From Oceanispirochaeta sp. (GTDB lineage Bacteria; Spirochaetota; Spirochaetia; DSM-2461), in the NCBI GenBank assembly GCA_963663385.2, contig CAXXXD010000003.1:1536001-1600000 (forward strand): a DNA stretch of 64,000 nt, in the 5' to 3' direction. Every line of letters starts with the position of its first letter. Within the stretch, counting starts at the first letter, position 1. Under the pieces are notes generated by a model. That model was given only the letters and a program-made list of their open reading frames with translations, ran no database searches and was not told the DNA's origin. Of this stretch, positions 27,691 through 44,664 are shown piece after piece. The translations under genes were made by a program, and so were the position numbers.

Positions 27691-28152
27691 TTATTCAGGA
27701 TTGCAGTTCAGCTGTTCTTTCAGCTTATTAATTTTATCCCGCAGTTCTACGGCCGCTTCATAATTTTCATGTTTCACCAGTCCTTCCAGATTTTGCCTGA
27801 GACTGTCTATCCGTATCCTCAGATTTCTCCTTTCTTCCGGTTCTCCCTGAAGAATGGAGAGCAGATCATCCCGAAAGACATTGAAACATTCCGGGCATCC
27901 TGTTACGCCCCGTTTCAATACGGATTCCCTGGTAGTTCCGCAACCGGGACAGGCCTGCCGGTCCATAACACAGGAAAACTCCTCCAGACAACGGCTGAGC
28001 TCATCATAATCCAAAAGGACCCCCTCCTTCTGGCGGGTGATACCCCTCTCGGCAGCACAGAGGGAACAGAGAGGAATGTTCTTCTTCTGCCCCTCAAGAG
28101 TCATCCGCAGAGTTATCAGGATTTCATCGCTGCAACAGAAAAAACAGTACAT
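27691..28152 (-). CDS. mcsA: McsA-like protein (Cys-rich, UvrB/UvrC motif)
   Basis: CxxC pairs (CFFC, CSLC, CPGC, GCPEC) and C-terminal ENYEAAVELRDKI; upstream of clpC. Confidence 0.8.
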   Translation of the reverse strand: MYCFFCCSDEILITLRMTLEGQKKNIPLCSLCAAERGITRQKEGVLLDYDELSRCLEEFSCVMDRQACPGCGTTRESVLKRGVTGCPECFNVFRDDLLSILQGEPEERRNLRIRIDSLRQNLEGLVKHENYEAAVELRDKINKLKEQLNCNPE

Positions 28153-28202: not shown

Positions 28203-29504
28203 TCAATGTTTCCGGAGAATATCCAGAGGTTTTATTCTGGAAGCTTTCAGCACAGGAATCAGGGACGCTGCGACAGAAAGCAGAACAGTTCCTCCAAAGA
28301 TTACCGCCAGAACAGACACTTTTATTTCAACAGGAAACTCATCCAGATAATAAGCCCGATTGAGCAGTTCCACATGGGTATAGCTTCCCCCCCGCCCCGG
28401 CAGGCTTGAGAAGGAGTACACAAAAAAATTGACAACGGATTCCGCTCCGTGAATAAGGGAATTCAGATTCAAGGCCAGAATACAACCGATTCCTATCCCG
28501 ATCAGGCTGCCGGCGCCCCCTGCCAGAGCAGCGGTGATAACATACTGCAGGGAGAGAGCGGAAGGAGGGAGCCCCATGCTTTTCTGTATACCGATAGCCT
28601 GTTCATTTTCCATAACCAGCATAACCATTGAGGAAGATATATTCATAACAGCAACCAGTACAATCAGGACCATGATAAATACAAGCAGGGTACGGGTTGT
28701 TTCAAAGTTGCTTTGATGGGAACGGTTGAGGGTTTTCCAGGAGTAGATACCCCATTTTCCTTTAAGAACTTGCCTGATATCACTCATAAGGGGGGACATA
28801 TCCCCGTAGGGTGAACGGATTTTTATACCTGTTACGGAAGAGGCCTCGCTGTCCTGAAGAATTTTGAGGGCTCTTTCATAGGGGATAAAAACCCACATTT
28901 TATCCAGATCCTGGTATCCCGTTGAGAAAATTCCCATAACTGTAAAACGGGAAACCTTTGGAATATATTTGCCAGTGGAAAGTGTTTTACCCGTAAGGAT
29001 CCTGAACTCGTCTCCTGTTTTCAGATTAAGACTGCGGGCAATCTCCTCTCCGATCATGGCGGAATTCCCGTCTCCCAGATCAAAATTCCCCTTTTTGATG
29101 GTCAGGAATTTCCGGAACCCCTCATCCCTGCTGTAGAGCCCCGGTTCCAGTCCTCTTACATTGACCATACTCTGCCCCCCGGAAGAATAGGCCATACCCA
29201 TCCCTTTATGCTCAAGGGTTACCAGGGTAATATCATCCAGACTGAGCAGGCTCTCATACATTTCTTCCGACTCTTCTTCATCAGGAACGTTATAGTTTCT
29301 GAGCTGAATATGGTAGGTACTGGTTTCGATAAAGCGGTCTGTAATCCCGCGGATCATCCCGTCGGACATGAAAAGGACAACAATCAGCGGGATCATGCTG
29401 AGAGCGATTCCCAGAACGGAACCCAGTACCGGACGGGATTCTTTCTCTCCTCTCTGACGGTTGGTAAACAGTCGGAGAGCCATTTCCAGAGGCAGTATAT
29501 TCAT
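28203..29504 (-). CDS. LolC/E-family ABC permease (MacB/FtsX-like)
   Basis: TM1, large periplasmic loop, IVLVAVMNISS, IGIQKSMG, YYLDEFP, KASRIKPLDILR. Confidence 0.88.
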   Translation of the reverse strand: MNILPLEMALRLFTNRQRGEKESRPVLGSVLGIALSMIPLIVVLFMSDGMIRGITDRFIETSTYHIQLRNYNVPDEEESEEMYESLLSLDDITLVTLEHKGMGMAYSSGGQSMVNVRGLEPGLYSRDEGFRKFLTIKKGNFDLGDGNSAMIGEEIARSLNLKTGDEFRILTGKTLSTGKYIPKVSRFTVMGIFSTGYQDLDKMWVFIPYERALKILQDSEASSVTGIKIRSPYGDMSPLMSDIRQVLKGKWGIYSWKTLNRSHQSNFETTRTLLVFIMVLIVLVAVMNISSSMVMLVMENEQAIGIQKSMGLPPSALSLQYVITAALAGGAGSLIGIGIGCILALNLNSLIHGAESVVNFFVYSFSSLPGRGGSYTHVELLNRAYYLDEFPVEIKVSVLAVIFGGTVLLSVAASLIPVLKASRIKPLDILRKH

Positions 29505-30175
29505 TTTCGATTCAAACTCCCGCCATGAAGGTGGTAGCGGAGCCCGCCCCGTTCCGCCAGGTCGGGATCATGGGTAACCAGAATCAGAGTCGTTCCCGCC
29601 TCTTCTGTCAACTGAAACAGGAGATCCTCAACCACACGGGAGTTTTTCTCATCCAGGCTTCCTGTAGGTTCGTCCGCCAGGATCAGGGGAGGCTGATTCA
29701 TCAGAGCCCTGGCAAGGGCAATCCTCTGTCGTTCTCCTCCCGAGAGCTGCCCGGGAAAGTGATCCTTCCGACCGGTCAGACCCACTTTTTCAATCAGTTC
29801 ACCGGCCCGCTCTGTCAGGGCTTTTTTATTCCTTCCCTGTATCCGTCCCGGCATCATGATATTTTCCAGTGCCGTAAAATCCTTTAAAAGGTAGTGAAAC
29901 TGAAAGATAAAACCGGTTTTTTCATTCCTGTACCGGGACAGAACGGTCTCATTCATTCCGGTAATAACCTGATCACAGGCTGTGATTTCCCCCTCATCCG
30001 GAGCATCCAGGCCTCCTATCAGATTCAGGAGGGTACTTTTACCGCTGCCGCTCTCCCCCGTAATGACAAGACTTGATCCCCGGGGAACCGAGAAGTCAAC
30101 ACTATCCAGTATAAGAAGGGTATCGTCCCCCGACTGGTAGGTTTTAGTTACATTCCGTAATGAGAGAATACTCAT
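29501..30175 (-). CDS. lolD: LolD-like ABC ATP-binding protein
   Basis: GESGSGKSTLL, GFIFQFHYLL, LSGGERQR, ADEPTGSLD; lies between two LolC/E genes. Confidence 0.88.
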   Translation of the reverse strand: MSILSLRNVTKTYQSGDDTLLILDSVDFSVPRGSSLVITGESGSGKSTLLNLIGGLDAPDEGEITACDQVITGMNETVLSRYRNEKTGFIFQFHYLLKDFTALENIMMPGRIQGRNKKALTERAGELIEKVGLTGRKDHFPGQLSGGERQRIALARALMNQPPLILADEPTGSLDEKNSRVVEDLLFQLTEEAGTTLILVTHDPDLAERGGLRYHLHGGSLNRK

Positions 30176-30190
30176 AGCTCCCTATTCCTC

Positions 30191-31456
30191 CTATTCGCTT
30201 TGAAACACTTCTGCGGGCTTGATATTTGAATAGGTTCTGACTGAACCGTAGGCTGCAGCCAGAACGGAGACCAGTGCCGCCCCATTAATAATGATCAGAT
30301 CCTGTGCCATTATCTCTACAGGAATATCCGTAAAGTAGAAAAGGGAAGCCCCGGAGGAGGAACCTATCCCGATCTGATAGAGAAACAGACGCATATTCTG
30401 AACAAATGTTACAAAAGCATCCATAATGGCATTGATATTCAGAGAGATCAGAACGCCAGCCGCGGTTCCCAGAAAACAGCCGCTTAAACCGATTATCCCC
30501 CCCTGAAGAAGAAAAATCCTGCGGACGCCGGATGGGGTTCCGCCGATAGCCTTCAGCAGGGCCATTTCCTCCAGCCGTTCCCTGACACTCCGTTTCATGG
30601 AGTGATAGATATTGACGGCTACCACAATAAAAATGAGCCCGACAATCAGCAGCATAAATGTTTTTTCTATTTTGAGAGCATTGAAGAAAGCACTGTTATA
30701 GGTCCGCCAGGACACGATTTTATCCTTTCCTTCCGGAAGAAGATTTCCCAATGAACGGATAGAACCTGTATCCCGGAAATGTCTCTTCAGTTTAATCCCG
30801 TAAACCAGATTTGGATTATTCTCACCCTGTCCGGAAAGATGAAGAGAGGTGAACGCCATATTCCGGTCATATTCATAGTATCCTGTTCGGAAAACACCGC
30901 TTACCCGGAATTCACGGTTTGAAAGGGCAGCCTTACCCTGCTGAACCCTCATAAAGGCAAGAGTAACCGTATCACCCACAATCGCATTAACTTCCCGGGC
31001 CAGATCCGCACCCAACAATATCTGGCCGGGCTGAGAAAAAAGAAAAGATCCTTTTACAATCTGAAACTGCTCCAGAAAGCCCTTATCTTCCAGAGCGGCA
31101 GTTTCATCAATATACCGGATCTGTATACCCGAGGTATAACCGCTGTCGGAAGTGAGAATGGCCTGATAATCCGCAAAGGGAACAACAGCCTTGATATTGG
31201 GAGTTTCAGCGGTGATTTCCCGGAATTCCTCAAAAGATATACCTGGATCATTATACCGGATATGATAAGAGTAGATCTCGTTAATACTTGTAATAAACCC
31301 CTGCTGGAAACCGTTCATAACTGTAAGAACAGTAATAAGAGTCAGGATTCCGATTATAAGCCCCAACACCGCCAGAGCATTGCCCAGATGCCCCTTGCGC
31401 CCGCTATGAGTCAGCAGATACCGCAGGGAAATATGCAGGCTCCAGTTATCTTTCAA
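30191..31456 (-). CDS. LolC/E-family ABC permease
   Basis: VLTVMNGF, GVFRTGYYEYD, ALKIEK, EMALLKAIG, IKPAEVF. Confidence 0.9.
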   Translation of the reverse strand: MKDNWSLHISLRYLLTHSGRKGHLGNALAVLGLIIGILTLITVLTVMNGFQQGFITSINEIYSYHIRYNDPGISFEEFREITAETPNIKAVVPFADYQAILTSDSGYTSGIQIRYIDETAALEDKGFLEQFQIVKGSFLFSQPGQILLGADLAREVNAIVGDTVTLAFMRVQQGKAALSNREFRVSGVFRTGYYEYDRNMAFTSLHLSGQGENNPNLVYGIKLKRHFRDTGSIRSLGNLLPEGKDKIVSWRTYNSAFFNALKIEKTFMLLIVGLIFIVVAVNIYHSMKRSVRERLEEMALLKAIGGTPSGVRRIFLLQGGIIGLSGCFLGTAAGVLISLNINAIMDAFVTFVQNMRLFLYQIGIGSSSGASLFYFTDIPVEIMAQDLIIINGAALVSVLAAAYGSVRTYSNIKPAEVFQSE

Positions 31457-32484
31457 GACTTGTCTCCTTCCTCTTGTTCCCGGTTTATTCTTTTTTCATA
31501 AACAGCCTGATTATTCCGATAAAAAATCTCTTTGTCGTATTCATCCTCATGAATTACTTTTTTAATGAGTACCCCGTTACGGTAATAGCTGCTGACTGAA
31601 GGGTCCGCCGTATCGTCTTCATACTCATAGAGCCATTGAAAACGGTTCTTTCCGGAACGTTCCTGATAACGGAGGAGTTTTTCTCCCTGAAATTCCCGGG
31701 TGATTGACTGCCGGAGGATACCCTGAATAAAGAGATTCTCCATCACAGCCTGTCCCCACTCATCAAAATAACTGATTTTCAGAGAAGAATCGGGGTAGTT
31801 CCAGGTTGTTTCGTTGCTGATCGCTCCGTTTTCTCCGTAAACATACAGGGTCTTTTCTATCTCCGCCCCTTCGGTGTATACAGATCGCAGAGAAACTCTG
31901 CCCTTTTCATAGTTGTAGCGGTATCCTTCAACCCCCTCATCCAGCTGAACCTGATCAATAAATGCTTCCATATAGTTGGAGGAGCGCCAGAGGATTCTGG
32001 TTCTCCCGCCTTTCAGCTCTCTCAGGGAACCTCTGTCATTGTACAGAAAATCAAAGAGGGTCTCTTCCAGACCATCCTTGTTCAGAATCAGCATGCCCAT
32101 CAGAATGCCGTCCCCGCTATATCTGAAAATCCTGTGTTCCAGCAGGTTAGCTCCGGAATCGTACATCTGCTCTGACAGTACAGTGCCGTTCGGGTCATAC
32201 TCGTTGATTTCTCTCAACACATTCTTGTAATAGTAGGTTTCAAGGAGGTTATTACCGGCGTCACCGCTCCTCTGCTCTTCCCAGCGTTTAATTTCCTTCC
32301 CGTTCTGGAAAAGGGTTTTAACACTCCCTCCCGGATCCTCTTCTGTTTTAAGGTACCACTCTTCCTCTCCCGTAACCTTTTCCAATGGTTCCAGGCGGCT
32401 GCCCAGCCCATCGGAAAGGTAAAAGCTATCGGAATACAGGGAAACCCCTGCTAATAGGAACAGGACAAAAGGGAGGCGGCCCAT
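31453..32484 (-). CDS. Exported hypothetical protein with YD/MORN-like beta-repeat character
   Basis: Signal peptide; repeated Y-x-x-x-G segments (EYDPNG, YSGDG, YNDRG, YGENG); tight operon spacing. Confidence 0.7.
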   Translation of the reverse strand: MGRLPFVLFLLAGVSLYSDSFYLSDGLGSRLEPLEKVTGEEEWYLKTEEDPGGSVKTLFQNGKEIKRWEEQRSGDAGNNLLETYYYKNVLREINEYDPNGTVLSEQMYDSGANLLEHRIFRYSGDGILMGMLILNKDGLEETLFDFLYNDRGSLRELKGGRTRILWRSSNYMEAFIDQVQLDEGVEGYRYNYEKGRVSLRSVYTEGAEIEKTLYVYGENGAISNETTWNYPDSSLKISYFDEWGQAVMENLFIQGILRQSITREFQGEKLLRYQERSGKNRFQWLYEYEDDTADPSVSSYYRNGVLIKKVIHEDEYDKEIFYRNNQAVYEKRINREQEEGDKS

Positions 32485-32487
32485 TAA

Positions 32488-33411
32488 TCAGATCGCCAGC
32501 AGATCGTCCAGGTACTGTTCGGCATTGAACTCGGACAGATCGTTCAATCCTTCTCCATGCCCTACAAAAGAGACGGGGATTTTCAGTTTTTTATTGATAG
32601 CCACAACCAGGCCCCCCCGGGCAGTTGCATCATACTTGGTTAAAATAACCGCATCCACACCAATGGCTTCATGGAAGATCTCCGCCTGCTGCAGACCGTT
32701 CTGACCTGTTGTGGCATCGATAACAAGAATCTTTTTGTACTCCCCGTCCCCTTTCAGGTTTGAAGAGATTATCTTGTTGATTTTCATCAGTTCGTTCACC
32801 AGGTTCTTCTTGTTATGCATCCTTCCGGCTGTATCCGCCAGAATAAGCTCTTCACCCTGAGAGTGGGCAGATGCAATGGTATCGTAGATAACTGCTCCCG
32901 GATCGGATCCGTGTTTCTGGGCTACAACCCGGAAACCGGTTCTTTCTCCCTGAATCTTAAGCTGATCGATAGCAGCTGCACGGAAAGTATCCCCTGCACT
33001 TAAAACAATTTTGGAAAATCCTTTTTTCTTATAGTACTCTGCCAGTTTGGCTATGGTGGTTGTTTTACCCACACCGTTTACACCGAGAACAAGGAAAAGG
33101 TTCAAGTCATCCCTGGAAGGCATGAGATCTGTCGTAATAAGGTGTTCGGAAACAACCTGTTTCAGTTCGGCCAGTATGGTATTCTTATCTTTCAGTTTAT
33201 CCTTTTTGACCCTGGTCCTCAGTTCATCAACCAGTTCCATTGTAACGACACCGCCCATATCACCTGAAATCAGAACTTCTTCAAGTTCTTCATAGAATTC
33301 TTCCAGATTCCCGCCGGATCTGGAGAAAAGTTCTGCAATCCGGCTGCCCAGGTTACCTTTTCTGGCAGTGGTATTTTCTGTTTTTTTATTATTTTTTTTC
33401 CAATTAAACAT
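32488..33411 (-). CDS. ftsY: Signal recognition particle receptor FtsY (NG domain)
   Basis: GVNGVGKTTTIAK, DTFRAAAIDQL, DTAGR, DATTGQNG, TKYDATARGG. Confidence 0.96.
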   Translation of the reverse strand: MFNWKKNNKKTENTTARKGNLGSRIAELFSRSGGNLEEFYEELEEVLISGDMGGVVTMELVDELRTRVKKDKLKDKNTILAELKQVVSEHLITTDLMPSRDDLNLFLVLGVNGVGKTTTIAKLAEYYKKKGFSKIVLSAGDTFRAAAIDQLKIQGERTGFRVVAQKHGSDPGAVIYDTIASAHSQGEELILADTAGRMHNKKNLVNELMKINKIISSNLKGDGEYKKILVIDATTGQNGLQQAEIFHEAIGVDAVILTKYDATARGGLVVAINKKLKIPVSFVGHGEGLNDLSEFNAEQYLDDLLAI

Positions 33412-33421
33412 GAATTCCTCG

Positions 33422-34900
33422 CTAATCCTCTGTGGATTCTTCAGCAGCTTTTATATAATCCTTCAACTTGAACAGCGTGTTTATCAATAAAGCACCGCTG
33501 ACTGTAACGCCTCCCAGAAAAAAGTTATAGGAAGACTCGGATGCTTTTTGAGCATCCAACGCTTTTTCATAGCTGCTCTGACTGCCTGTTGTATTCCAGT
33601 CCAGTGCGTAATTATAATACATATTGTATTGGTTTTGGTAAATGCCATAGATGATAAGAGGAGCTCCCATTGATAGGCTGAACCAGCCGAGAGAGCGATA
33701 GAATCGGCTTTTGGCATCATCAAACGCCTGCTGCCTGTTATACTTCTCCTTACTCAGTTCGACGGTAATACTGTTTCCGTCAAGCTCCCAGGAGGGAGAA
33801 TGAAAAGATTCATACCCGTCCAGGCTGATTTTTACATCATTTGAAAAGTCCGGGCCGGGGACAGCAAGCGGTGTATACCCCATCCAACTGGATCCGAAAT
33901 AGACATCTGCACCGGGAGGATCGGAGAAAAAGTACATTTTTTCAGATTCCTCTTTCTCCAGCGCTACATCCAGTTCGACACGGCCCATTCCAGGCAGATA
34001 AATCTGCTGACTCCGGGATGTATAACCGTCTTCACTGACTTTAAGAGTGGCATAACCGGGTTGGGCAATTTTCGTCAGGGCATTCCCCACACCTATGACT
34101 TCCCCGTCCAGAGAAACGATACAGCCGGGAGGATCCGTGTGCACCTGCAATTCCGACCAGGTTCGCCCCAGAACTTCTATCCGCATCTCGCCGGCGGCTT
34201 TTCGGATAATGGAATTCAGCTCATCTTCCTGTCCTACACCGGACCAGGAGTAAACAGGATCCTCCTGAACCCGGCTGTAACAGTTAAGCTCCAGAAAAAA
34301 AAGCTCATCCAGTCTTTCCAGTTTTCCCGTCAGAAGTATATCCAGGTTATTCTTCTCCATAAAACGGGTAACCTGCCGGTCCCTGGGACAGCTGTCAAAA
34401 TCCATGTACTCTACAGGAAGAATATCCTCCAGTTCAATAAGATCAGCATCCAGCCGGTACCAGGCTTCCTCTTCCTGCATTTTCTCCCTGATGGATTCGC
34501 TGTAACCATTATAGGTCTCGGTTTTCTGCTCATCACTATTGTCAGAAAAAAGCAGTTCATCTCTCCGGGTATAAAGAGCATCAACGGTGTTTCGGGTTTG
34601 ATTGATCTGGTCATTAATATAGGAGGATTTAAGGAAGTCTTTCTCTTCCAGGGATAGGTTATGTTCAGTTATATCCCGTAGTTCCTCTTTTAATAACTGG
34701 GGCAGGCTATCGCTCAGATATTCAAACCTGTCATCCAGGTTTGAAACGGCCAGCCGGCAAATGCCGGCAACCCAATGATCCTTGTTCACCCTTATGTTGT
34801 CAGGAATCAGAGACCCCTCCCGAGCGTTCAATCCCCGGGTATTGAAAGTTAGAATCGATAAGAAAAAAAAGGTGAACCGGAGGATTGAAATTCTACTCAT
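33422..34900 (-). CDS. PEGA-domain membrane protein
   Basis: Signal-like N-terminus; two PEGA-like units (HTDPPGCIVSLDG; SDPPGADVYFG...GYTP); C-terminal TM segments. Confidence 0.75.
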   Translation of the reverse strand: MSRISILRFTFFFLSILTFNTRGLNAREGSLIPDNIRVNKDHWVAGICRLAVSNLDDRFEYLSDSLPQLLKEELRDITEHNLSLEEKDFLKSSYINDQINQTRNTVDALYTRRDELLFSDNSDEQKTETYNGYSESIREKMQEEEAWYRLDADLIELEDILPVEYMDFDSCPRDRQVTRFMEKNNLDILLTGKLERLDELFFLELNCYSRVQEDPVYSWSGVGQEDELNSIIRKAAGEMRIEVLGRTWSELQVHTDPPGCIVSLDGEVIGVGNALTKIAQPGYATLKVSEDGYTSRSQQIYLPGMGRVELDVALEKEESEKMYFFSDPPGADVYFGSSWMGYTPLAVPGPDFSNDVKISLDGYESFHSPSWELDGNSITVELSKEKYNRQQAFDDAKSRFYRSLGWFSLSMGAPLIIYGIYQNQYNMYYNYALDWNTTGSQSSYEKALDAQKASESSYNFFLGGVTVSGALLINTLFKLKDYIKAAEESTED

Positions 34901-35258
34901 TTCCCCTGCCGGCCCGGTTGATCGCCGAAATGAGTCTCTTTCTCTGAAAAGGTTTAACTATATAATCTACCGCGCCGAGTCTTATGGCCTGTATTATCTT
35001 TTCCTGATCACTTAAGGAGGAGCACATAATGACCCGGCAGTCCGGGTAGGCCTTTTTTAGGCTTTTCAGAGCCTCTACACCGTTCATCCGGGGCATGATA
35101 ATATCCATCAGAACCAGATCGGGTAGAAGGGACTTATAGCGGGAAAGGCATTCAATGCCGTCTCCCGCCTCTCCGATCACGATATGACCGCTTTCGCTAA
35201 CGATATCAGAGATGATTGATCGCATGAATGGCAGGTCATCCACAATCAGGATTCTCAT
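34893..35258 (-). CDS. CheY-like single-domain response regulator
   Basis: ILIVDD, DLVLMDIIMPRMNG, MCSS, DYIVKPF. Confidence 0.92.
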   Translation of the reverse strand: MRILIVDDLPFMRSIISDIVSESGHIVIGEAGDGIECLSRYKSLLPDLVLMDIIMPRMNGVEALKSLKKAYPDCRVIMCSSLSDQEKIIQAIRLGAVDYIVKPFQRKRLISAINRAGRGNE

Positions 35259-36365
35259 CCCTGCGAGTTTCCCGACCAGAGGTACTGCAGATAAGCTTCA
35301 ATAAAAGGATCCAGATCCCCATCCATTACATTCTGGATGTTGCCGGTTTCCCATCTGGTTCTAAGATCCTTAACCATTGTATAGGGATGGAAAACATAGG
35401 AGCGGATCTGGGATCCCCAGCCTATCTCCTTTTTTTCCGCCGCAGAAGCAGCCCTTTCTTCATCCTGCTTCTGTTTATAATACTCATACAAACGGGATTT
35501 CAGCATTTTCATGGCAATTTCACGGTTTTTCAACTGACTTCGCTCATTCTGACACTGAACCACAATATTCGTCTCCAGGTGAGTCATACGGATCGCACTG
35601 CTTGTCTTGTTAACATGCTGACCGCCTGCTCCGGAGGCCCTGTAGGTATCAACACGGATATCCTCGGGTTTGATATCCACCTCGATGGTATCATCAATCA
35701 CAGGTGAAACATATACAGAGGCAAAGGATGTATGCCTTCTGGCATTGGAGTCAAAGGGTGATATTCTTACCAGACGGTGTATACCTCCCTCGCCCTTCAG
35801 ATAACCGTAAGAGTAGTCGCCGTCAACCTGAAAAGAGATGGATTTGATGCCGCCTTCAGCCTCGATCAGATCCATAACTGTTATTTTATATCCTTTCCGC
35901 TCAATCCATCGGTTATACATCCGGTATAGCATACTGGTCCAGTCACAGGCTTCCGTACCGCCGGCACCGGAGTGGATTGTAACAAACGCAGAAAGGACAT
36001 CTGTCTCTTCACTGAGAAGTTCAAGGGAGTTAAGCTGATCAAAAACTTTCCGAACACTGTCCAACTGGCTTTGAATCTCACCTTCAAGGGATTCATCACC
36101 CTCTTCTACGGCCAGTCCAAAGAGTTCCATCAGGTCCTCCATATCAGTAACCAGTTTTTCCCATGGTTCATATTTATTTTTCAGTCTTTTTAACTGTGCC
36201 AGTTTTTTTTCGGCACTTTCGCGATCATTCCAGAAATCGGGATCTCCCGATTCGATTTCCAGTTCACGGGCTGCGCTTTTCAGTTCAGCCGTGTCAAAGT
36301 CGCCTCCAGGTATCCGTAATCTCCCCGTTAAGGGATTTCAACTGAGATGAGATATCACTTAGCAT
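35255..36365 (-). CDS. prfB: Peptide chain release factor 2 with programmed +1 frameshift
   Basis: ATG 36365 gives MLSDISSQLKSLNGEITDTWRRL, then CTT TGA C; the +1 frame continues DTAELKSAA...DPDFWND into the track ORF carrying SPF and GAGGQHVN. Confidence 0.96.
36293..36307 (-). promoter_or_regulatory. RF2 autoregulatory frameshift signal
   Basis: Minus strand GGAGG-CGA-CTT-TGA-C: internal SD-like sequence 3 nt before CTT TGA C. Confidence 0.93.
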
Positions 36366-36654
36366 TTGTGCCTCCGTTATTTTTATCTTTTAAAATATTG
36401 CGTCTCCACCGTTTTTCCGTTAATGAAGTAATAACAAGTTTCCCTTCTATAGGATATTGATAGATTCTGATAGAATCATAAAAATCCGTTGCCCTGTCCA
36501 GATCCAGTTTTAAACGGGACAAATTGTTCTCGTTTATACTCAGGGATTCAAATGTATTTTTTTGAATTTGTTTAAATCCGTAACGGAAGAGCAAGTTCTG
36601 AACAACCTTTTCACTATCTTCGTTCCCAAGATCAATTACAATGGATACAAACAT
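36355..36654 (-). CDS. Orphan Cas2/VapD-like ferredoxin-fold protein
   Basis: 99 aa from ATG 36654: MFVSIVID(8)LG...LLFRYGFKQIQKNTFE...DFYDSIRIY follows the Cas2 pattern (hydrophobic strand ending in Asp8, YG-x-x-x-Q-x-x-x-FE, DSIRIY). No cas1 or array nearby. Confidence 0.7.
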   Translation of the reverse strand: MFVSIVIDLGNEDSEKVVQNLLFRYGFKQIQKNTFESLSINENNLSRLKLDLDRATDFYDSIRIYQYPIEGKLVITSLTEKRWRRNILKDKNNGGTNAK

Positions 36655-36663
36655 GATCATTAT

Positions 36664-36692
36664 ACTCTATTTGCGTCTTGCCAGGCTGTCAA
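36664..36692 (-). promoter_or_regulatory. Putative sigma70 promoter for the cas2-like/prfB operon
   Basis: Minus strand TTGACA (36692-36687), 17 bp, TAGAGT (36669-36664), only 9 nt before ATG 36654. Confidence 0.6.
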
Positions 36693-36699
36693 TACACAA

Positions 36700-38451
36700 T
36701 TAAAACAATGTGACTTCACCGCTGCTTGCGCCCTCTTCTTCCAGAGCAAAAGAACTTGTAATATCGGCCTTTTTCTTGTGAATAAAAATCGTAAACTTAT
36801 CAATAAGATCCTTTATTTCGTTTCCCCGCAGTTTCCACTCCGAATAGGGACTGGCCGCAAGGGCATGATCGAGTTTTTCCTTGTATTGATTCTTCTGGGT
36901 ATCTACAATCCCGGTTACATCGTACAGTTTTTTCATAAGATCCTTCATTGTACGCAGATCTTTTCTTGTCATCTGATAGAATTCATCAAAAGCCTGTCCG
37001 GCTTTCACAATTTCCAGGGTACAGTAGTCTACTTTCTCATGGGAATCCGAAACCCCTTCAAGCCCTTTTCTCAAATCTACTATAAATTGTTCAAGCTGGG
37101 CTGCATCATCCGTAAAATCCTTGAAATAGTCGTTAAATAACCTGTCGGTACTTTTCCTGAAATCACCAATGATGCGTGTAAGAACTTCAACATTCTGTTC
37201 TATCGAGTCTGTACGATTATTAATATTCTCAATAATGAAATTCATATTCTCCAGATGTGGGAGTTTGGCTGCCTCAACCCGACTGGATATGTTGATTGTC
37301 TTGACCCAGTTGATTATCCGCACAAATCCGTTGGATGATTCTTCCAGCTTACCTATCTCCTTTAAAAGATGACTCAGATTCTTTTTAAGAGACTCCCTGC
37401 TGAACCCTTTACGGAATATTTCCGAATTCTGAGAGATGGATTTCTGAAACTCCCGTATCTTCAGAGAATAGGAATCATTCCCTGACTGATTCAGGAAAGT
37501 CTCTCCGGATTTCTGAATGGTCAGCATCATTTCGGACAGATCATCCGATTTTTCCTGAAAGAGTTTATAGGTTTCATCAATTCCCTCTCCGATTTCACTC
37601 AGGATATCTTTACAGAACGAGTAAACCTGGTATTGATATGTCAGATAATCCAGCTCATCCTCTGTACTGACACTGCTTACCTCCAATCCTTTCTGAAACG
37701 AAAGGATTACATGATCAATGGACTGCCTTACAATATCGTGCTTCTGAACCTCCTGAATAATATGGTAAAGGGGGTCTCTGATACCCCCGACTCCTTTCTG
37801 GAGTTCTGATACAAGGATATGGATTTTATCCTTATACTCCTTGATAAGCTTCAGCATATTATTCAGATTTTCAGCGATTATATCCATTGCCTGATTCAAA
37901 TCGGATTTATCACTGTCAATATTGGACAGAAAGGAACGGAATACCCGATCCATATTTTCACCATGGTCTTTCAGTCTGTTACTTAGATAGGCTGAATCCT
38001 TCGATACCGCCTGAAGTTCTTCCGTTATATAGGGAAAAGCACCTCCGTTCTTACCAGCCTTGAGAGCGGTTACCATGGCATTGAGCGAAATCAGTTCCAG
38101 CTCTGCCGAATCATCCTCGATAACCTTGATATGTTCCTCAAAGAGGCTGGATTTTTTGAGTTCAACCTCCAGATTATCAAGAAAGCCGGAATCTTTTTCG
38201 GATAGTTTCGTAAAGATGATACCTTCCGAACTGACAATATTCTGAAGATAGGCAACTGATTCCTCCATGTCATCCAGCCCGCAGAAAGCGTTCTTCTTCT
38301 GCATATCCGAAGTATCTAGTGACCTGAATTTCTCATCCATCAAATCAAGAATCCGGGGATAGTTATCCGCCATCCCCATATAGACATTTCCGAGTTCCGC
38401 AACGATGTATTCCAGATTTTTAACTATTCTGATTTGATTTTCATTATCCAT
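36700..38451 (-). CDS. Soluble divergent methyl-accepting chemotaxis-like coiled-coil protein
   Basis: No TM segment; [22 protein letters not shown] and [12 protein letters not shown] resemble MCP hairpin-tip motifs; ATG 38451 overlaps the cheB stop. Confidence 0.7.
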
Positions 38452-39520
38452 TTGCTGCTTTCCTGACAACTTCCGGAGCAATTTTATTCAGGGGAAGAAC
38501 AGAGTGTACCGCTTGCCTTTTGATTGCTTCATTGGGCATTCCGAAAACAACGCAGCTGGCTTCATCCTGGGCGATATTGAAGGCGCCGGCCTCTCTCATT
38601 TCATCCATGCCCCGTGCTCCGTCATCACCCATTCCGGTCATGATGACTCCAATCGCATTTGGTCCCGCATAGCGGGCGGCCGAACGGAACAGAACATCGA
38701 CCGAAGGTTTATGGCGACAGACAAGGGGGCCTTCCTTGGTTTCAACATAATACCGCGCCCCCTGACGTTTCAGGAGGAGATGGCGGTTTCCGGGGGCAAT
38801 CAATGCCCGGCCACGGTATACTACATCATTGTTCTCCGCTTCCTTTACTTCGACCTGACAGAGACCGTTCAGGCGTTCTGCAAAGGACTTTGTAAAATGT
38901 TCCGGCATATGCTGAACGATGACAATACCCGGCGAATTTACCGGCATGGCTTCCAGAAAGACCCTGAGAGCTTCCGTTCCGCCTGTAGACGCCCCGACAA
39001 CAACAATTTTCTCAGTCGTATCGATAGTCAGGGGCCTATGTGATTTTGCCAGAATGGCATCGGCTGTTAATTTGGGAGGAACAGGGCCGGCGGGAACCTT
39101 TTTTTTAATTTTCGCTTTTGTTGAGGAAGCCGCCCGTATAACATCGCATATACGTATCTTCGATTCCTGCAGAAACTCTTTGGTTCCGACTTTCGGTTTC
39201 TGAATAATTTCCACAGCACCCAACTCAATAGCTGTAATAGCATTCTGACCACCCTTTTCTGTTTTACTGGAACAGATTATGGTAGGGATAGGATTTTCCG
39301 CCATCAGCTTTTTAAGAAAAGTCAGCCCGTCCATCTGGGGCATTTCAATATCCAGGATAATGACATCCGGTTTATTCTTTGCGATTTTTTTTTCACCTAT
39401 AATGGGATTCGGAGCTGTATCAATAACGTCAATGTCTTTCTCTTCTGCAATCAGTTGAGTGAGAGTCTGCCTGACAACAGCGGAATCATCAATAATCATA
39501 ACCTTGATTTGTGTTCCCAT
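38444..39520 (-). CDS. cheB: Chemotaxis response regulator protein-glutamate methylesterase
   Basis: Receiver (IIDDS, LDIEMP) plus [28 protein letters not shown]. Confidence 0.96.
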
Positions 39521-39531
39521 AAAATGCTCCT

Positions 39532-40380
39532 CTATGAAATTGATTTCTGATAGATTGTAGGTGCGACAGATAAATAGGGTAAATTTAAACCTGTGATGGT
39601 TTCCGAATGCCCCAGAAACAGATATCCTCCGGGATGCAAGTGATTATACAGCTGCATCAGGATTTTTTTCTGTTTCTCCTGGGGAAAGTAGATCAGTACA
39701 TTCCGGCAGAATATGACATGAAATTTCTTATTGATCCGGTAATCATTATCCATTAAATTAAGCTGACGGAACTGCATATTTTCCTGCAGAAAAGGTTTTA
39801 CCTTAACCTGTTCGCTGTTCTTATCTTTGCTTCGTAAAAAAAATTTCTTTTTTTGAGCAAGAGGAATATTCTCTATCCGGGACTCATGGTAGATTCCCCG
39901 CCGCGCTTTCTGCAGAACTTCCTGGGAGATATCAGTTCCAAAAAGGGTAAAATGCAGCTGAGGATGTTCGAAACGGATCTGATGAAGCACCATGGAAAGG
40001 GTGTAAACTTCCTCTCCAGTGGAACTGGCCGATGACCATATATCCAGGTGTACAGGCTGATTCGTCTGAAGAAGCGGGAGAACAACATTGTTTTCCAGAT
40101 AGATAAAGTGATCCGGTTCCCTGAAAAAATCCGTTTTATTCGTGGTAACCACATCAATCATAAAGGGCAGCTCGTTTTTCATCCCCTTTTCACTGAACAG
40201 GAAATCACAGTAATCACTATATGAATTAATTGAAAGGGTCCTCAATCGTTTATGTAACCGGGATTCCAGCATAACCTTTTTTATTTCAGGCATCCGGATT
40301 CCCAGCTCATCTTCAATGAACTTGCTTAAACGCTTGAAATCCTTCTGCTTCAGTTCCGGTCTGTCATAACCTTCTGTCAT
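39532..40380 (-). CDS. cheR: Chemotaxis methyltransferase
   Basis: [44 protein letters not shown]. Confidence 0.96.
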
Positions 40381-42479
40381 CAGTTAACTTCCTTCCGGGC
40401 CAGAATGGATATTCTGTTAACATCCAGAATCAGTGCAACAGATCCGTCGCCTAGAATTGTAGCGCCGGTTATATAGCTTACACCCTTATAGAGTTTGCCC
40501 ATATTTTTAATAACAGTCTGATGATCCCCTATAACCTCATCCACCACCAGACCGGCCAGATTATTCTCGGTCTGAACCATAACCACATGCTCCCTCTGGG
40601 GAAGTTCACTGTCATCCAGAAAAATCTCCCTCAAGCGGATATAGGGAATCATTGAGTCCCTGTATTCCATCAAACGTTTTTTACCGTGTTTCGCACGGTC
40701 TTCACTGGTCAGTTCCAGACAGGCCTGAACGGCTGAAAGGGGAAAAACATATTTATCATCTCCGATACGGACGAGGAGACCTTCGATGATAGCCAGGGTG
40801 AAGGGAAGATTCAAAGAGAAGACAGTTCCTTCACCCGGTTTACTGTCGATAGAAATCAGACCGCCCAGCGCATCGATCTGTCTTTTAACAACATCCATGC
40901 CAACGCCCCTTCCGGAAACACTGGTTACATTGACAGCCGTGGAAAAACCGGGCATAAAAATCAGATCAAAAATCTCTTCATCACTCAGGTCGGCATCCGG
41001 TGAAACAAGCCCTTTTTCAATACCCTTTTTCAGAATCGCATTTTTATCCAGCCCCTTGCCGTCATCCCGAATCTTAAGGATAACATTGGCACCGGAATAT
41101 TTCGCTTCAAGGGTAATGGTACCGCTCGCCCCTTTTCCTTTTTCTTCCCGTACGGAAGGGGCTTCTATTCCATGATCAATGGAATTCCTGATAAGGTGAA
41201 TCAGGGGATCATTCAATTTTTCAATAACATTTTTATCCAGCTCTGTCTCACCTCCCAGAGTTACCAGCTGAATCCGTTTATCCAGGGAGGAAGAGAGATC
41301 TCTGACCAGCCTTTTAAACCGGGAAAATGTCGTGCCGATAGGAACCATTCTTAAACTCATGGTATTGTCCCGCAGATCAGAAGTCAGTCTTTCTATCTGT
41401 TCCGCCAACGAAGAGAGAGAGGATTTCTTTATCTGTGTAGCCAGCTGGGAAAGGCGGGCCTGAGCTGTTACGAGCTCTCCAACCGAATCCACCAGATTAT
41501 CCAGTTTTTCACTTTTAACCCTGATGGAACTGGAACCTGAATCACTCATGGTCTGTTTCAGGGTTTTGGTAATTTTCTGCTCTTCCAGGGCTGATTTGAT
41601 TTCGGCATCGCTGACCAGGCCTTTTTCAATCAGGACTTCTCCCATTTTTTTACGGGAATTGAGGACATCCTCCAGCTGTTCATTGCTGACCAGCCCCTTC
41701 TCCATCAGGATTTCTCCCAACTTCTTACCGCTGCCCGGATTGATGATGTCATGCCAGTCGGCAACAATCGAAACATCCACAGAGGAGGAAGAATCCAGAA
41801 AGATAAAGACATCTTTAATCTCATCAATACTATACTCAGAGATAAGAAAGATTTCCCACCTTATATAGGATTTATGAGGATTGTACTCCTCCAGCAGGGG
41901 TATTTTATCCGGATGACAAACGCTGTGATACTCCCCCAGGGATTCAAGTTCCTTCAAAAGAAGCAGAGGATTCGTACCGCTCAGGAAAATATCTTCGGAG
42001 GGTCTGAAATCGATCCTGTAGGTATTGAGGGTTTTATCATCAGCTTTGGTTTTCTCTGATTCTCTTCCTGCCTTGATATTTGATGCAGGAACGGATTCGA
42101 CACCAGCCAGTCTATTCAATTTTCCTACAATATCATTGGAAATTTCCTGAAACTCCGGGGTACTGTCCGATTCCGCTCCCAACATACTGGTTATATGGTC
42201 ACGACTTAACAAAGTCAGATCAATCAACTCTTTTGAAACTTTCATGTTTCCTTCCCGGACGCCGTCCAGGATTGTTTCAACTGAGTGGGTAAAACTGGAG
42301 ATTCCGTTAAAATCGAACATTGAGGCAGAGCCTTTAATTGTATGTATCGATCTGAAAACGGCTGCTATGGTTTCAGGATCATCGGGTCTATCTTCCATCT
42401 CCATAAGAAGATCTTCCAGATTCCCCAGTAGTTCGTATGCTTCTTCTTTAAAAGTTTCCTTGAACTGATTCTGATTCAT
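40380..42479 (-). CDS. cheA: Chemotaxis histidine kinase CheA
   Basis: FRSIHTIKG (P1), HLIRNSIDHG, DDGKGL, GFSTA...SGRGVGMDVVK, C-terminal CheW domain; ATG 42479 preferred. Confidence 0.96.
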   Translation of the reverse strand: MNQNQFKETFKEEAYELLGNLEDLLMEMEDRPDDPETIAAVFRSIHTIKGSASMFDFNGISSFTHSVETILDGVREGNMKVSKELIDLTLLSRDHITSMLGAESDSTPEFQEISNDIVGKLNRLAGVESVPASNIKAGRESEKTKADDKTLNTYRIDFRPSEDIFLSGTNPLLLLKELESLGEYHSVCHPDKIPLLEEYNPHKSYIRWEIFLISEYSIDEIKDVFIFLDSSSSVDVSIVADWHDIINPGSGKKLGEILMEKGLVSNEQLEDVLNSRKKMGEVLIEKGLVSDAEIKSALEEQKITKTLKQTMSDSGSSSIRVKSEKLDNLVDSVGELVTAQARLSQLATQIKKSSLSSLAEQIERLTSDLRDNTMSLRMVPIGTTFSRFKRLVRDLSSSLDKRIQLVTLGGETELDKNVIEKLNDPLIHLIRNSIDHGIEAPSVREEKGKGASGTITLEAKYSGANVILKIRDDGKGLDKNAILKKGIEKGLVSPDADLSDEEIFDLIFMPGFSTAVNVTSVSGRGVGMDVVKRQIDALGGLISIDSKPGEGTVFSLNLPFTLAIIEGLLVRIGDDKYVFPLSAVQACLELTSEDRAKHGKKRLMEYRDSMIPYIRLREIFLDDSELPQREHVVMVQTENNLAGLVVDEVIGDHQTVIKNMGKLYKGVSYITGATILGDGSVALILDVNRISILARKEVN

Positions 42480-42486
42480 TATAAAC

Positions 42487-42765
42487 CTACTTTTCAATCA
42501 ATGATGAAAAATCGCAAAGTACAAACCGTTCCCTTACGGGAGAGCTGATATTAACGATTTCCATGGATCGCCCGTTATCCAGACAGGACTTATTCAAACT
42601 GTACAGCAGCTGAAGCGCTGCAAAATCAATATCTGTGACTTCTGAGAAATCCAGTTGTATGTTGCTTTTTTCATCAACAGCCTTCAACAGATCAGTATGA
42701 AGAGATTCCACCTTTTGAATATTCAGATTCCCGTCAAGCTTTACTTTCTCTTTTTTCGGAGGCAT
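42487..42765 (-). CDS. STAS-domain protein
   Basis: 92 aa; LDGNLNI...LDFSEVTDIDFAALQLL. Confidence 0.85.
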   Translation of the reverse strand: MPPKKEKVKLDGNLNIQKVESLHTDLLKAVDEKSNIQLDFSEVTDIDFAALQLLYSLNKSCLDNGRSMEIVNISSPVRERFVLCDFSSLIEK

Positions 42766-42767
42766 AT

Positions 42768-43133
42768 CTACTCTCCAATGACTTTTTTAATAACAGCCAG
42801 AACTTTATCGCTGTCAAAGGGTTTAACGATCCAACCGGTTGCCCCCAGGGATTTCCCTTTTTCCATAATGGATTGTTGAGATTCCGTAGTAAGAACAAGG
42901 ATGGGCGTAAATTTATGGCGGTCTGTTTTTCTGAGCGCCTCAATCAGACCAAGCCCGTCAAGATTAGGCATATTAACATCGGTAATAACCAGATCTGCGT
43001 CTGTATTCACAAGGATATCAAGAGCTTCCTTTCCATCGGCCCCTTCAATAACATTGTATCCGCCTTCCTTAAGAAAAAACTTCAGGCTTTCTCTAACTGT
43101 GCGGGAATCATCCACTATCATTATTGTTTTCAT
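42768..43133 (-). CDS. cheY: Chemotaxis response regulator CheY
   Basis: IVDDS, ITDVNMPNLDG, LTTES, GATGWIVKPF. Confidence 0.93.
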   Translation of the reverse strand: MKTIMIVDDSRTVRESLKFFLKEGGYNVIEGADGKEALDILVNTDADLVITDVNMPNLDGLGLIEALRKTDRHKFTPILVLTTESQQSIMEKGKSLGATGWIVKPFDSDKVLAVIKKVIGE

Positions 43134-43171
43134 TCGTTACTCCTGAAATATAGTTACTCTATTCTTTCTGT

Positions 43172-43657
43172 TTATTCAGCTATTTTTTCCTGCCCGGCTA
43201 CCATAGTAACCTCATTTACAGTCAGTACTTTATCAATATCCAGAACAATCAGAAACTCCTCATCCTTCCGGCCCATGCCCTTAATAAAGGCCGTATCTAT
43301 TTTTGTACCGATATAAGGGGTGGGTTCTATCTCTTCATCGTTCATTTCGATAACTTCTTTTACCGAATCCGTCAGCAGCCCCATGGTAACGGATTCATCA
43401 TCCAGCAGAACCTCTGTTACAATGATGCTGGTATCGATATCCTTAAGGGTTTCTCCCAGTCCGAATTTCAATTTAAGATCGATAACAGGAACGACGCTGC
43501 CCCGGAGATTGATAATCCCCCTCATAAAATCGGGCATCCTGGGAACTTTCGAAATAGTAGTGAATTCCTGAACCTCTTTTACATTAAGTACATTTAAAGC
43601 ATATGTTTCTTCATCAATTGTAAAAGTCAGGTACTGAGTTGTATTGCTGTCATCCAT
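43172..43657 (-). CDS. cheW: Chemotaxis coupling protein CheW
   Basis: QYLTF, GIINLRGSVVPVIDL, GLLTDSVKEV. Confidence 0.95.
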   Translation of the reverse strand: MDDSNTTQYLTFTIDEETYALNVLNVKEVQEFTTISKVPRMPDFMRGIINLRGSVVPVIDLKLKFGLGETLKDIDTSIIVTEVLLDDESVTMGLLTDSVKEVIEMNDEEIEPTPYIGTKIDTAFIKGMGRKDEEFLIVLDIDKVLTVNEVTMVAGQEKIAE

Positions 43658-43724
43658 GAAGTTCTCCTCAAATATTCCAATTTATAAATAATTCTAGACT
43701 CAATTCAATAGCAATTCCAATAAA

Positions 43725-44318
43725 TTAAAACAATACAATATCATTACTGTCTTTTTTAATGATAAATGAATCTTCGTATTTTTTCTCATCCTTGGCAATA
43801 TGGCGGATATTCCTTGCAGATTTCAGCTTCTTTACCAGAACCCGGCCCTCTTTCGGGAAAAAAAGAATTTTCCTCCCCAAGGAACCTCCTGTATCGGATG
43901 AGAGTACCGGGATTTCTTCATTTTCAAGGAATTTCAAGGCGAAAAGGATATTCATTTGACCAATGCCTTTCCCATCCTCTTTCATTTCAAACATATCGCT
44001 TCCGCCGAATACCTTGGCTTTCAGATTAATCTTCCGGGACCCCATTTTTAACAGACTGTTTATCAGGATTTCCATGGCGTAAACACCATAACGGGTCTCG
44101 TCTTTAAGGAGCAACTGAGTATCCCTAAGGGATACATCCGTTTCCGGCAGGAGAAAATGATTCATCCCGCCCCAGTGATTCATCGTGTCAAAAAGTGTTA
44201 CTGAAACACAGGATCCTAATACTGTAGAGATAATTACATCTTCCTGACTGGCCATATATTCACCTGGATGAAGGGTGACATTCTTCAGGTTGAATCTATG
44301 ATAAAAACTATGGTACAT
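43725..44318 (-). CDS. cheD: Chemoreceptor glutamine deamidase CheD
   Basis: TVLGSCVSV, GMNHFLLP, RYGVYAMEIL, AKVFGG, DTGGSLGRKI. Confidence 0.93.
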   Translation of the reverse strand: MYHSFYHRFNLKNVTLHPGEYMASQEDVIISTVLGSCVSVTLFDTMNHWGGMNHFLLPETDVSLRDTQLLLKDETRYGVYAMEILINSLLKMGSRKINLKAKVFGGSDMFEMKEDGKGIGQMNILFALKFLENEEIPVLSSDTGGSLGRKILFFPKEGRVLVKKLKSARNIRHIAKDEKKYEDSFIIKKDSNDIVLF

Positions 44319-44322
44319 CGAA

Positions 44323-44664
44323 TTAACCGGAATACTTCATAACAGCGGGGTCTTTAAAGAATTCCCTTACACTCTCCTGCAGTTCAGGGATATGTTCATC
44401 AAAGTAATAACCGTTTCCGCTCTGCTTCATTTCCAGCTCCATTTCAGCAGCAATGCGATGTATGGAAACAGCCCCTATACAACCGGCGATTCCTTTGATT
44501 TTATGGAGGAATTCAGCGCTTGCCTGAATTTGTTCGTTACTCCTTTCCTCCCGGGTTTTTTTCAGAAACTCCGGGATATCCTGAATAGCCATTTGAAGCA
44601 GTTCAGTAGAAAGGGAAACATCGTTTTCCGTGTATTTCAGAAGATCATTTTCGTTAAATATCAT
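44323..44664 (-). CDS. Stand-alone Hpt-domain protein
   Basis: 113 aa helical protein; LHKIKGIAGCIGA phospho-His motif. Confidence 0.85.
   Translation of the reverse strand: MIFNENDLLKYTENDVSLSTELLQMAIQDIPEFLKKTREERSNEQIQASAEFLHKIKGIAGCIGAVSIHRIAAEMELEMKQSGNGYYFDEHIPELQESVREFFKDPAVMKYSG

Follow-up and report, generated by a model that had tools for sequence, protein, structure and literature searches.

A solo Cas2-fold gene ahead of prfB in spirochaetes

Introduction

Why does a spirochaete carry a Cas2-like gene directly before prfB, the gene of release factor 2 (RF2), with no other part of a CRISPR system beside it? The question is raised by a 64-kb stretch of Oceanispirochaeta DNA (called the window here), in which an earlier note had recognized such a gene and read it as a domesticated, housekeeping Cas2 with a possible role in mRNA or translation quality control. 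We know of non-CRISPR roles of Cas2 only as side effects of genes located within cas loci, and why Cas2 has a nuclease activity that is not needed for spacer acquisition is, to our knowledge, a long-standing question. We called the gene solo Cas2 and analysed its locus, its predicted fold, its relatives and its conserved residues.

The solo Cas2 locus

Solo Cas2 is located on the minus strand at positions 36355..36654 of the window, from the ATG at 36654-36652 to the TGA at 36357-36355. It codes for 99 residues, with Asp at residue 8, and the family core corresponds to residues 1-89. An alternative in-frame ATG at 36660 would add two residues; the homologues all begin at the MFV position. The protein scores 31.2-31.3 bits with PF09827, above the curated cut-off of 23.8, and 21.7 bits with the CRISPR-associated Cas2 equivalog TIGR01573, below the cut-off of 24.5. 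All 13 of its PADLOC matches are Cas2 models, whereas a search of NCBIfam with two further family members gave no match at E<=1e-5. It shares 29% identity across 73 residues with the type I-C Cas2 of the same genome. The re-derived coordinates and the PF09827 score thus uphold the 99-aa Cas2-pattern ORF with Asp8 described in the earlier note. Readings of the gene as a chance ORF, a pseudogene or a mobile element were rejected, and no Rfam element was found near it.

The next gene, prfB (35255..36365, minus strand), codes for a 369-residue RF2 by way of a +1 frameshift, read as 23+346 residues, with SPF and GGQ motifs and a TIGR00020 score of 460 bits (cut-off 370). The programmed frameshift signal (36293..36310, minus strand) consists of an internal GGAGG followed by CTT-TGA-C (36299-36293). 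The prfB ATG is at 36365, so that the two genes overlap by 11 nt (36355-36365), and the GGAGG ribosome-binding site of prfB (36371..36375, minus strand) falls within the non-conserved tail of solo Cas2. Both features had been noted before and agree with the coordinates.

A CheY-like single-domain response regulator (PF00072; 34893..35258, minus strand) follows prfB in the operon. The remainder (28203..34900, minus strand) codes for a PEGA-domain protein, FtsY, a hypothetical protein, a LolC/E-like permease, a LolD-like ATPase and a second LolC/E-like permease; FtsY scores above its cut-off, and the Lol assignments are best matches below cut-off. Gaps between genes range from -11 to +15 nt from solo Cas2 through the second Lol permease. 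McsA-like and Clp ATPase genes come next, after gaps of 50 and 106 nt, so that their co-transcription with the operon is only putative. The claim that solo Cas2 is co-expressed with this whole gene set therefore holds for prfB, as judged from RNA of a relative (see below), but the tight packing stops at the second Lol permease, before the Clp gene. The short McsA-like gene (27691-28152, minus strand) is directly upstream of that of the Clp ATPase (25101-27584, minus strand), with no ORF between them; the usual place of mcsB is between these two genes.

Upstream of solo Cas2 lies an MCP-like chemotaxis gene (36700..38481, minus strand), with 8 nt between its end and the -35 box. It belongs to what we take to be a chemotaxis cluster (36700-44664, minus strand) coding for Hpt, CheD-like, CheW-like, CheY, CheA-like, CheR, CheB and MCP-like proteins, most of these names being assigned from motifs. 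As the MCP-like neighbour was seen in only 10 close relatives, the cluster looks like a genus-level insertion. It separates the solo Cas2 promoter from a gene for a 597-aa protein (44728-46521, minus strand), which in other family members is the immediate upstream neighbour. That protein, which belongs to no Pfam or NCBIfam family, is encoded upstream of the solo Cas2 locus in 15 carriers and directly before prfB in four non-carriers.

Predicted fold

The AlphaFold2 model of solo Cas2, built from a 37-row alignment, has a pLDDT of 89.9 and comprises a ferredoxin core with two further C-terminal strands. A structural match to Cas2 or VapD had been named as a check, and it was found: ranks 1-8 of the Foldseek search are all Cas2 proteins, as are all 13 VIA rows with Z scores of at least 8.5 (8.5-11.4). 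The latter include the Cas2 proteins of Thermus thermophilus (1zpw; Z 11.4, rmsd 3.1, 72 residues aligned) and Escherichia coli (Z 10.9, rmsd 3.0, 83 aligned). The best non-Cas2 fold is that of residues 107-181 of PaaX (Z 8.0, rmsd 5.7), and VapD structures gave VIA Z scores of 7.2 and 6.7. A single-sequence search of the PDB with solo Cas2 yielded no match; with the family profile, Cas2 structures were matched by sequence at a best E value of 3e-5, limited to residues 1-70.

Independence from CRISPR loci

As the earlier note had it, there is no cas1 gene or CRISPR array in the 64-kb window; the genome nevertheless has two complete CRISPR loci elsewhere. One is a type I-C locus (contig C1:338740-345000) and the other a type II locus (contig C2:71767-73700), both with Cas1, Cas2 and an array, of about 71 and about 10 repeats, respectively. 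No cas1 gene or array was found beside solo Cas2 at any of 104 loci (642 kb, with many flanks of 1.5 kb and some re-cuts of one gene), whereas canonical Cas2 control loci have cas1 in 31/31 cases and an array in 25/31. Homologues lying mostly in CRISPR-cas loci, which by the earlier note would have made the gene a displaced remnant, were thus not found.

Among the 401 genomes of the class, cas1 is present in 157, i.e. in 65 of the 161 solo Cas2 carriers and 92 of the 240 non-carriers, giving an odds ratio of 1.09 in a sample that contains related, non-independent genomes and in which arrays often fail to assemble. No cas1 match was found in the other 96 carriers (60%), including 12 near-closed assemblies picked from the list. 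The solo Cas2 family is therefore without trace of association with cas1. In one family devoid of solo Cas2 matches (f85), many cas1 matches lie within open frames of 580-690 residues, suggesting Cas1 fusions.

Distribution and descent of the family

A profile search identified 52 representatives of the family among 1.84 billion proteins. The members are free-standing proteins of 89-116 residues, and profile searches, one of them weak by its own note, revealed no longer or fused forms. Named members come from Oceanispirochaeta, Treponema denticola (AAS12560.1), Treponema socranskii and uncultured Spirochaetota, and databases label them 'CRISPR-associated protein Cas2' or 'hypothetical'. Matching clusters in the ESM Atlas are all from Spirochaetota and Cas2-labelled. 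Searches of viral contigs, 50,697 phages and 72,556 plasmids turned up no member.

In 301 Spirochaetota genomes, 39 matches score E<=2e-32 and the next one 1e-6. A genome-wide PF09827 search fails to pick up solo Cas2 at its threshold (at E<=0.01, PF09827 recognizes 25 members out of 40), and absence was therefore scored with the family profile and by inspecting prfB loci cut from 35 non-carriers. The 161 carriers among the class genomes have exactly one copy each, and the other 240 have no match. The distribution is patchy by family, with 19/23, 13/13 and 10/11 genomes positive in some families but 0/55 and 0/37 in others.

A tree was built from 94 columns for 58 members of the family together with 26 canonical Cas2s of spirochaetes. 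In it, the solo Cas2 family forms one side of a branch with 100/100 support and a length of 2.6 changes per column; with 94 columns, the tree does not single out one canonical subtype as the nearest. For 42 loci, the distances between solo Cas2 proteins follow those between the RF2 proteins (Mantel r 0.90), two further class loci (L029 and L049) being left out with mis-cut or truncated RF2 sequences. Of the 17 supported splits in the solo Cas2 tree, 14 recur identically in that of RF2 and one conflicts with it. The median dN/dS is 0.046 for solo Cas2 and 0.039 for RF2, calculated over the 31 pairs (of 861) for which dS was usable; a single genus contributes 25 of these. Adjacent genes share a tree even if they have moved together, and we therefore read the agreement as long co-inheritance with a core gene. 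The phylogeny proposed as a check thus speaks for vertical descent and purifying selection, with an RF2-matching tree and a dN/dS of ~0.05.

Gene context and loss

We compared 79 distinct loci of the class, a subset of the 161 carriers, consisting of 44 loci, 16 new ones after removal of five duplicates, and 19 chosen across families. In all 79, prfB is the next gene after solo Cas2, and the upstream neighbours vary. The expected prfB linkage is thus conserved within the class. The junction is an overlap in 15 loci, a gap of 0-30 nt in 51 and a gap of >30 nt in 12, with one locus unscored.

A second lineage of the family (14 loci from other classes of the phylum) has other neighbours: prfB adjoins solo Cas2 in none of the 13 informative loci, the remaining one ending at a contig edge. 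These neighbours (a TPR protein, a GGDEF protein, OmpA, a PPDK region and unannotated proteins) share no common theme, and none points to RNA metabolism. The gene is often found beside that of an unannotated protein of 810-830 residues (L057:3706-6189, L061:4135-6630 and L063:2176-4602), and in four loci (L060, L063, L066 and L067) it is divergent from the gene of a TPR protein of 680-695 residues.

The prfB loci of the 35 non-carriers all lack a trace of solo Cas2 and retain prfB with its frameshift site. Two of them (L081 and L086) have a TTGACA-17-TAnnnT promoter and a remnant ATG at the old start, followed by a short stretch and then prfB, and in four close-relative non-carriers the usual upstream gene is joined straight to prfB. 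We interpret the promoter and ATG remnants, together with the direct junctions, as repeated clean loss.

Promoter and transcription

The promoter ahead of solo Cas2 spans 36692-36664 and consists of a -35 hexamer, TTGACA (36687..36692, minus strand), conserved in homologues, a 17-nt spacer and a -10 hexamer, TAGAGT (36664..36669, minus strand), 9 nt before the ATG; there is no Shine-Dalgarno sequence. The window contains nine promoter-like sites for 8.7 in shuffled sequences, the solo Cas2 site being the best. The promoter that the earlier note had assigned to the gene is therefore at chance level when taken alone, but it recurs: 69 of the 79 class loci have a TTGACA-like box, 16-18 nt and TAnnnT, with the ATG 5-10 nt (mode 6) downstream, an arrangement that precedes 85 of the 3059 long ORFs in the window's genome. 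We thus consider it more than a chance match. A Shine-Dalgarno-like word precedes solo Cas2 in 2/79 class loci and in 14/14 loci of the second lineage, none of which (0/14) has the leaderless-type promoter arrangement. Solo Cas2 of class Spirochaetia is apparently leaderless or near-leaderless, a feature that the earlier note had missed. Leaderless transcripts, or leaders of only a few nucleotides, are not uncommon among spirochaetes; in the Borrelia data of PMC5314773, ~19% of 5′ UTRs are <10 nt.

The RNA data, three stranded runs from a single study, are of a strain that resembles locus L068 at 90-99% and is distinct from the organism of the window. The bin with the solo Cas2 ATG (L068 position 6267) has a sense depth of 8-27, which climbs to 100-540 across the gene. 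There is no dip from solo Cas2 into prfB in any of the three raw runs, and depth falls three- to ten-fold over the 3′ half of prfB. Transcription in this relative thus appears to begin at the ATG and to continue into prfB. Left read ends, which are not a 5′ mapping, cluster 17-67 nt within the solo Cas2 ORF. The low signal just 5′ of the ATG stems from a repeat: a repeated, inverted element (L068:6050-6196), located between the promoter and the divergently oriented gene, draws reads from elsewhere in the genome.

Conserved residues

Thirteen positions are invariant or nearly so among 93 family members, namely M1, F2, G26, E36, L45, L48, K49, D60, R63, Y65, Q66, P68 and W83; E36, L45, K49, R63, Q66, P68 and W83 are kept in 93/93 and D60 in 92/93. 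Residue 8 is always acidic (Asp in 83, Glu in 10). Position 13 is Asp or Glu in 91/93 solo Cas2s versus Lys in 24/26 canonical Cas2s, and the Ser at position 33 (SVF motif) is found in 6/93 versus 26/26. Tyr7 occurs in 3/93 members and Arg29 (of RVQ) in 14/93, and the alpha-1 arginines are absent from the family. Two new motifs are conserved, Q66-x-P68 and a basic-aromatic hairpin, (K/R)82-W83-(K/R)84-(K/R)85 (motif region 81-85). No SST motif was found at 29-33 in the family alignment or in the tallies of the 93 members.

D8, D60 and R63 of solo Cas2 align with Asp8, Asp64 and Arg67 of Leptospira Cas2C, described as dimer-interface residues in PMC9510766. The same source lists Y9, D10, R17, R19, R31 and F37 as RNase residues of SSO1404; four of the six are not kept in solo Cas2, in which only the Asp and an aromatic residue at 35 are retained. 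It also describes the role of Cas2 in the integrase as non-catalytic (PMC9510766). The arginine clamp of E. coli Cas2 is formed by R16 and R78 according to PMC10491678, and residues 82-85 of solo Cas2 would lie roughly at R78, as judged from the alignment ranges (model 3-94 to 2-85) and not at residue level.

Discussion

Solo Cas2 is a folded, selected and CRISPR-independent protein related to Cas2, and RNA of a relative shows it to be expressed. As for what it does, we favour a domesticated, CRISPR-independent and dispensable Cas2 homodimer with a housekeeping job on nucleic acid, with structured RNA that is bound and probably cleaved as our guess for the substrate; we regard this reading as having an even chance of being correct. 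The family would be an old Cas2 offshoot in spirochaetes, single-copy and vertically inherited, that has left CRISPR adaptation. In class Spirochaetia, solo Cas2 would be the constitutive, leaderless first cistron of the prfB-ftsY-lol transcript, a position that would supply its expression rather than its function. As far as alignments can tell, the Cas2 dimer interface (D8, D60 and R63) is kept and the protein would be a homodimer; the protospacer-binding face appears remodelled, with the basic residues 13-14 turned into D/S and the SVF Ser gone; D8 and D13 of both subunits would together line an acidic cleft that probably binds metal; and Q66-x-P68 and the KWKR hairpin may provide a new grip on the substrate. 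The activity might serve RNA turnover or maturation and would be neither toxic nor essential. Several observations sit uneasily with this reading. The acidic start of alpha-1 could repel nucleic acid, suiting a protein partner instead; canonical Cas2 is non-catalytic in the integrase and most of the SSO1404 RNase residues are lost; the gene was not found in 240/401 genomes, whole families included; and no conserved neighbour in the second lineage hints at RNA metabolism.

The first of these observations leads to the main rival, a non-catalytic adaptor or scaffold in which a Cas2-fold dimer binds a protein partner by its acidic face or its C-terminal hairpin, as in PaaX. The loss of the canonical nucleic acid-binding basic residues, with the charge reversed at position 13, is in keeping with it, as are the rank of PaaX 107-181 as the best non-Cas2 fold and the non-catalytic yardstick set by canonical Cas2; conservation as tight as that of RF2 would suit a fixed partner. 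We nonetheless consider an adaptor rather unlikely, given that residue 8 is acidic in 93/93 members, that the basic-aromatic hairpin is invariant, that no domain fusion was found (in a partly weak search) and that no candidate partner gene neighbours solo Cas2 in both lineages.

The earlier note suggested a possible role in mRNA or translation quality control. Solo Cas2 would then act together with RF2 or the ribosome, at termination or in the quality control of mRNA, or the translation of the gene would tune RF2 output. The constancy of prfB directly downstream in 79/79 class loci amid varying upstream neighbours, the single transcript with prfB in the relative and the conserved leaderless start all agree with such a link. 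A complex prediction for RF2 (post-frameshift residues, 28-row alignment) with two copies of solo Cas2 gave scores of 0.01 and 0.00, which the tool itself states to be neutral. The link is improbable, however: the second lineage is away from prfB in all 13 informative loci and yet has the same invariant residues, the genes overlap in only 15/79 class loci and are >30 nt apart in 12, and the response regulator, FtsY and Lol proteins of the operon have unrelated jobs. Furthermore, the 35 non-carriers all keep prfB with its frameshift site, two of them with the promoter and ATG remnant. The fold, the vertical descent and the lack of CRISPR context thus sustain the idea of a domesticated housekeeping Cas2, but not the part that ties it to RF2 and translation quality control.

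A bolder extension of the ribonuclease idea seems doubtful to us in its full form. Solo Cas2 would then be a phylum-specific Cas2-fold housekeeping ribonuclease that predates the split of the two lineages and is possibly a relic of a pre-CRISPR Cas2/VapD stock and not an escapee from CRISPR, with a new active site made of the D8 and D13 pairs and the KWKR hairpin. In Spirochaetia, its translation without a leader, from the start of the prfB transcript, would couple RNA turnover to termination capacity under stress. If true, this would be the first core Cas protein built into translation control.

Service to CRISPR in trans, with solo Cas2 as a reserve partner for, or a brake on, the Cas1 of any acquired locus, is very unlikely. 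The full Cas2 architecture, including the C-terminal strand, would permit it, and there are two Cas1s in the window's genome and cas1 matches in 157/401 class genomes; but 96/161 carriers have no cas1 match (with the odds ratio of 1.09 given above), every locus has its own cas2, and one slowly evolving protein would need to fit several Cas1 types. Finally, the many losses, some by clean deletion, would suit an inert passenger or a cas remnant out of place, retained only for its site in an essential operon or as a translated leader, but this is barely credible in view of the dN/dS of ~0.05, the confident fold and 13 near-invariant columns across two lineages with different gene contexts.

We thus return to a domesticated Cas2 homodimer with a housekeeping job. 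The data suggest that a piece of an immune system was taken over for an everyday, so far undescribed job in many spirochaetes. The family is a natural experiment, in which purifying selection about as strong as that on RF2 has acted on a Cas2 for as long as a bacterial class has existed, 60% of the carriers being without cas1. The gene is present in the genetically tractable T. denticola and naturally absent from close relatives, which makes its function directly testable. It also follows that many spirochaete 'CRISPR-associated Cas2' annotations do not denote CRISPR genes.

Comparison with known Cas2-fold proteins

A full-text literature search that covered few subscription papers found no description of the solo Cas2 family. 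There is precedent for CRISPR-less Cas2-fold proteins, in BPSL1038 and in domains of PaaX and Bax1. The PaaX domain (8a39) is a Cas2 fold outside immunity, but it is part of a larger protein, whereas solo Cas2 is free-standing; Bax1 reportedly also has its Cas2-like domain in a larger protein and outside immunity.

With CRISPR-associated Cas2 (PF09827), solo Cas2 shares the ferredoxin fold, Asp8, YG, Q31, E36, the D-x-x-R-x-Y strand and the dimer-interface residues. The closest solved Cas2s are 1zpw, 6k2e, 5g4d and that of the Bacillus halodurans type I-C system (4es1/8d3l), and also that of E. coli type I-E (4qdl). Unlike CRISPR-associated Cas2, the solo family has no cas1 or array beside the gene, is independent of cas1, single-copy and vertically inherited, and forms a clade of its own. 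It has lost the basic alpha-1 residues and the serine of SVF and gained D13, Q-x-P and KWKR, and in class Spirochaetia the gene is the leaderless head of a housekeeping operon.

VapD toxins (9kan and 6zi0) have the same superfamily fold and are likewise CRISPR-independent. In contrast with them, solo Cas2 has a fixed chromosomal position and was not seen on plasmids or phages; its model gave lower Z scores with VapD (7.2 and 6.7) than with Cas2 (11.4). We also rejected a VapD/VapX-type toxin-antitoxin pair, as the promoter abuts the ATG in 69/79 loci, leaving no upstream antitoxin cistron, and the downstream gene is prfB.

BPSL1038 of Burkholderiales represents a CRISPR-less sub-family of Cas2/VapD-like nucleases with a D(X20)SST motif and, according to PMC10491678, is undetectable as Cas2 by sequence. 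Like solo Cas2, it is a small, stand-alone and CRISPR-independent Cas2-fold protein with a conserved Asp pair and a short beta1-alpha1 loop. Compared with that description, the solo family can be recognized as Cas2 from its sequence, is devoid of SST and, among the genomes searched, occurs only in Spirochaetota. A spirochaete parallel is Leptospira Cas2C, from an array-less type I-C locus, for which PMC9510766 mentions proposed non-CRISPR roles. It is a spirochaete Cas2 without an array, but it belongs to a cas operon and has kept RVQ and SVF in that description, whereas the solo family has no cas neighbours. Taken together, the solo family belongs to the Cas2 structural family but lacks the context and the motifs that define its CRISPR-associated members, and it does not look like a VapD or a BPSL1038-type protein.
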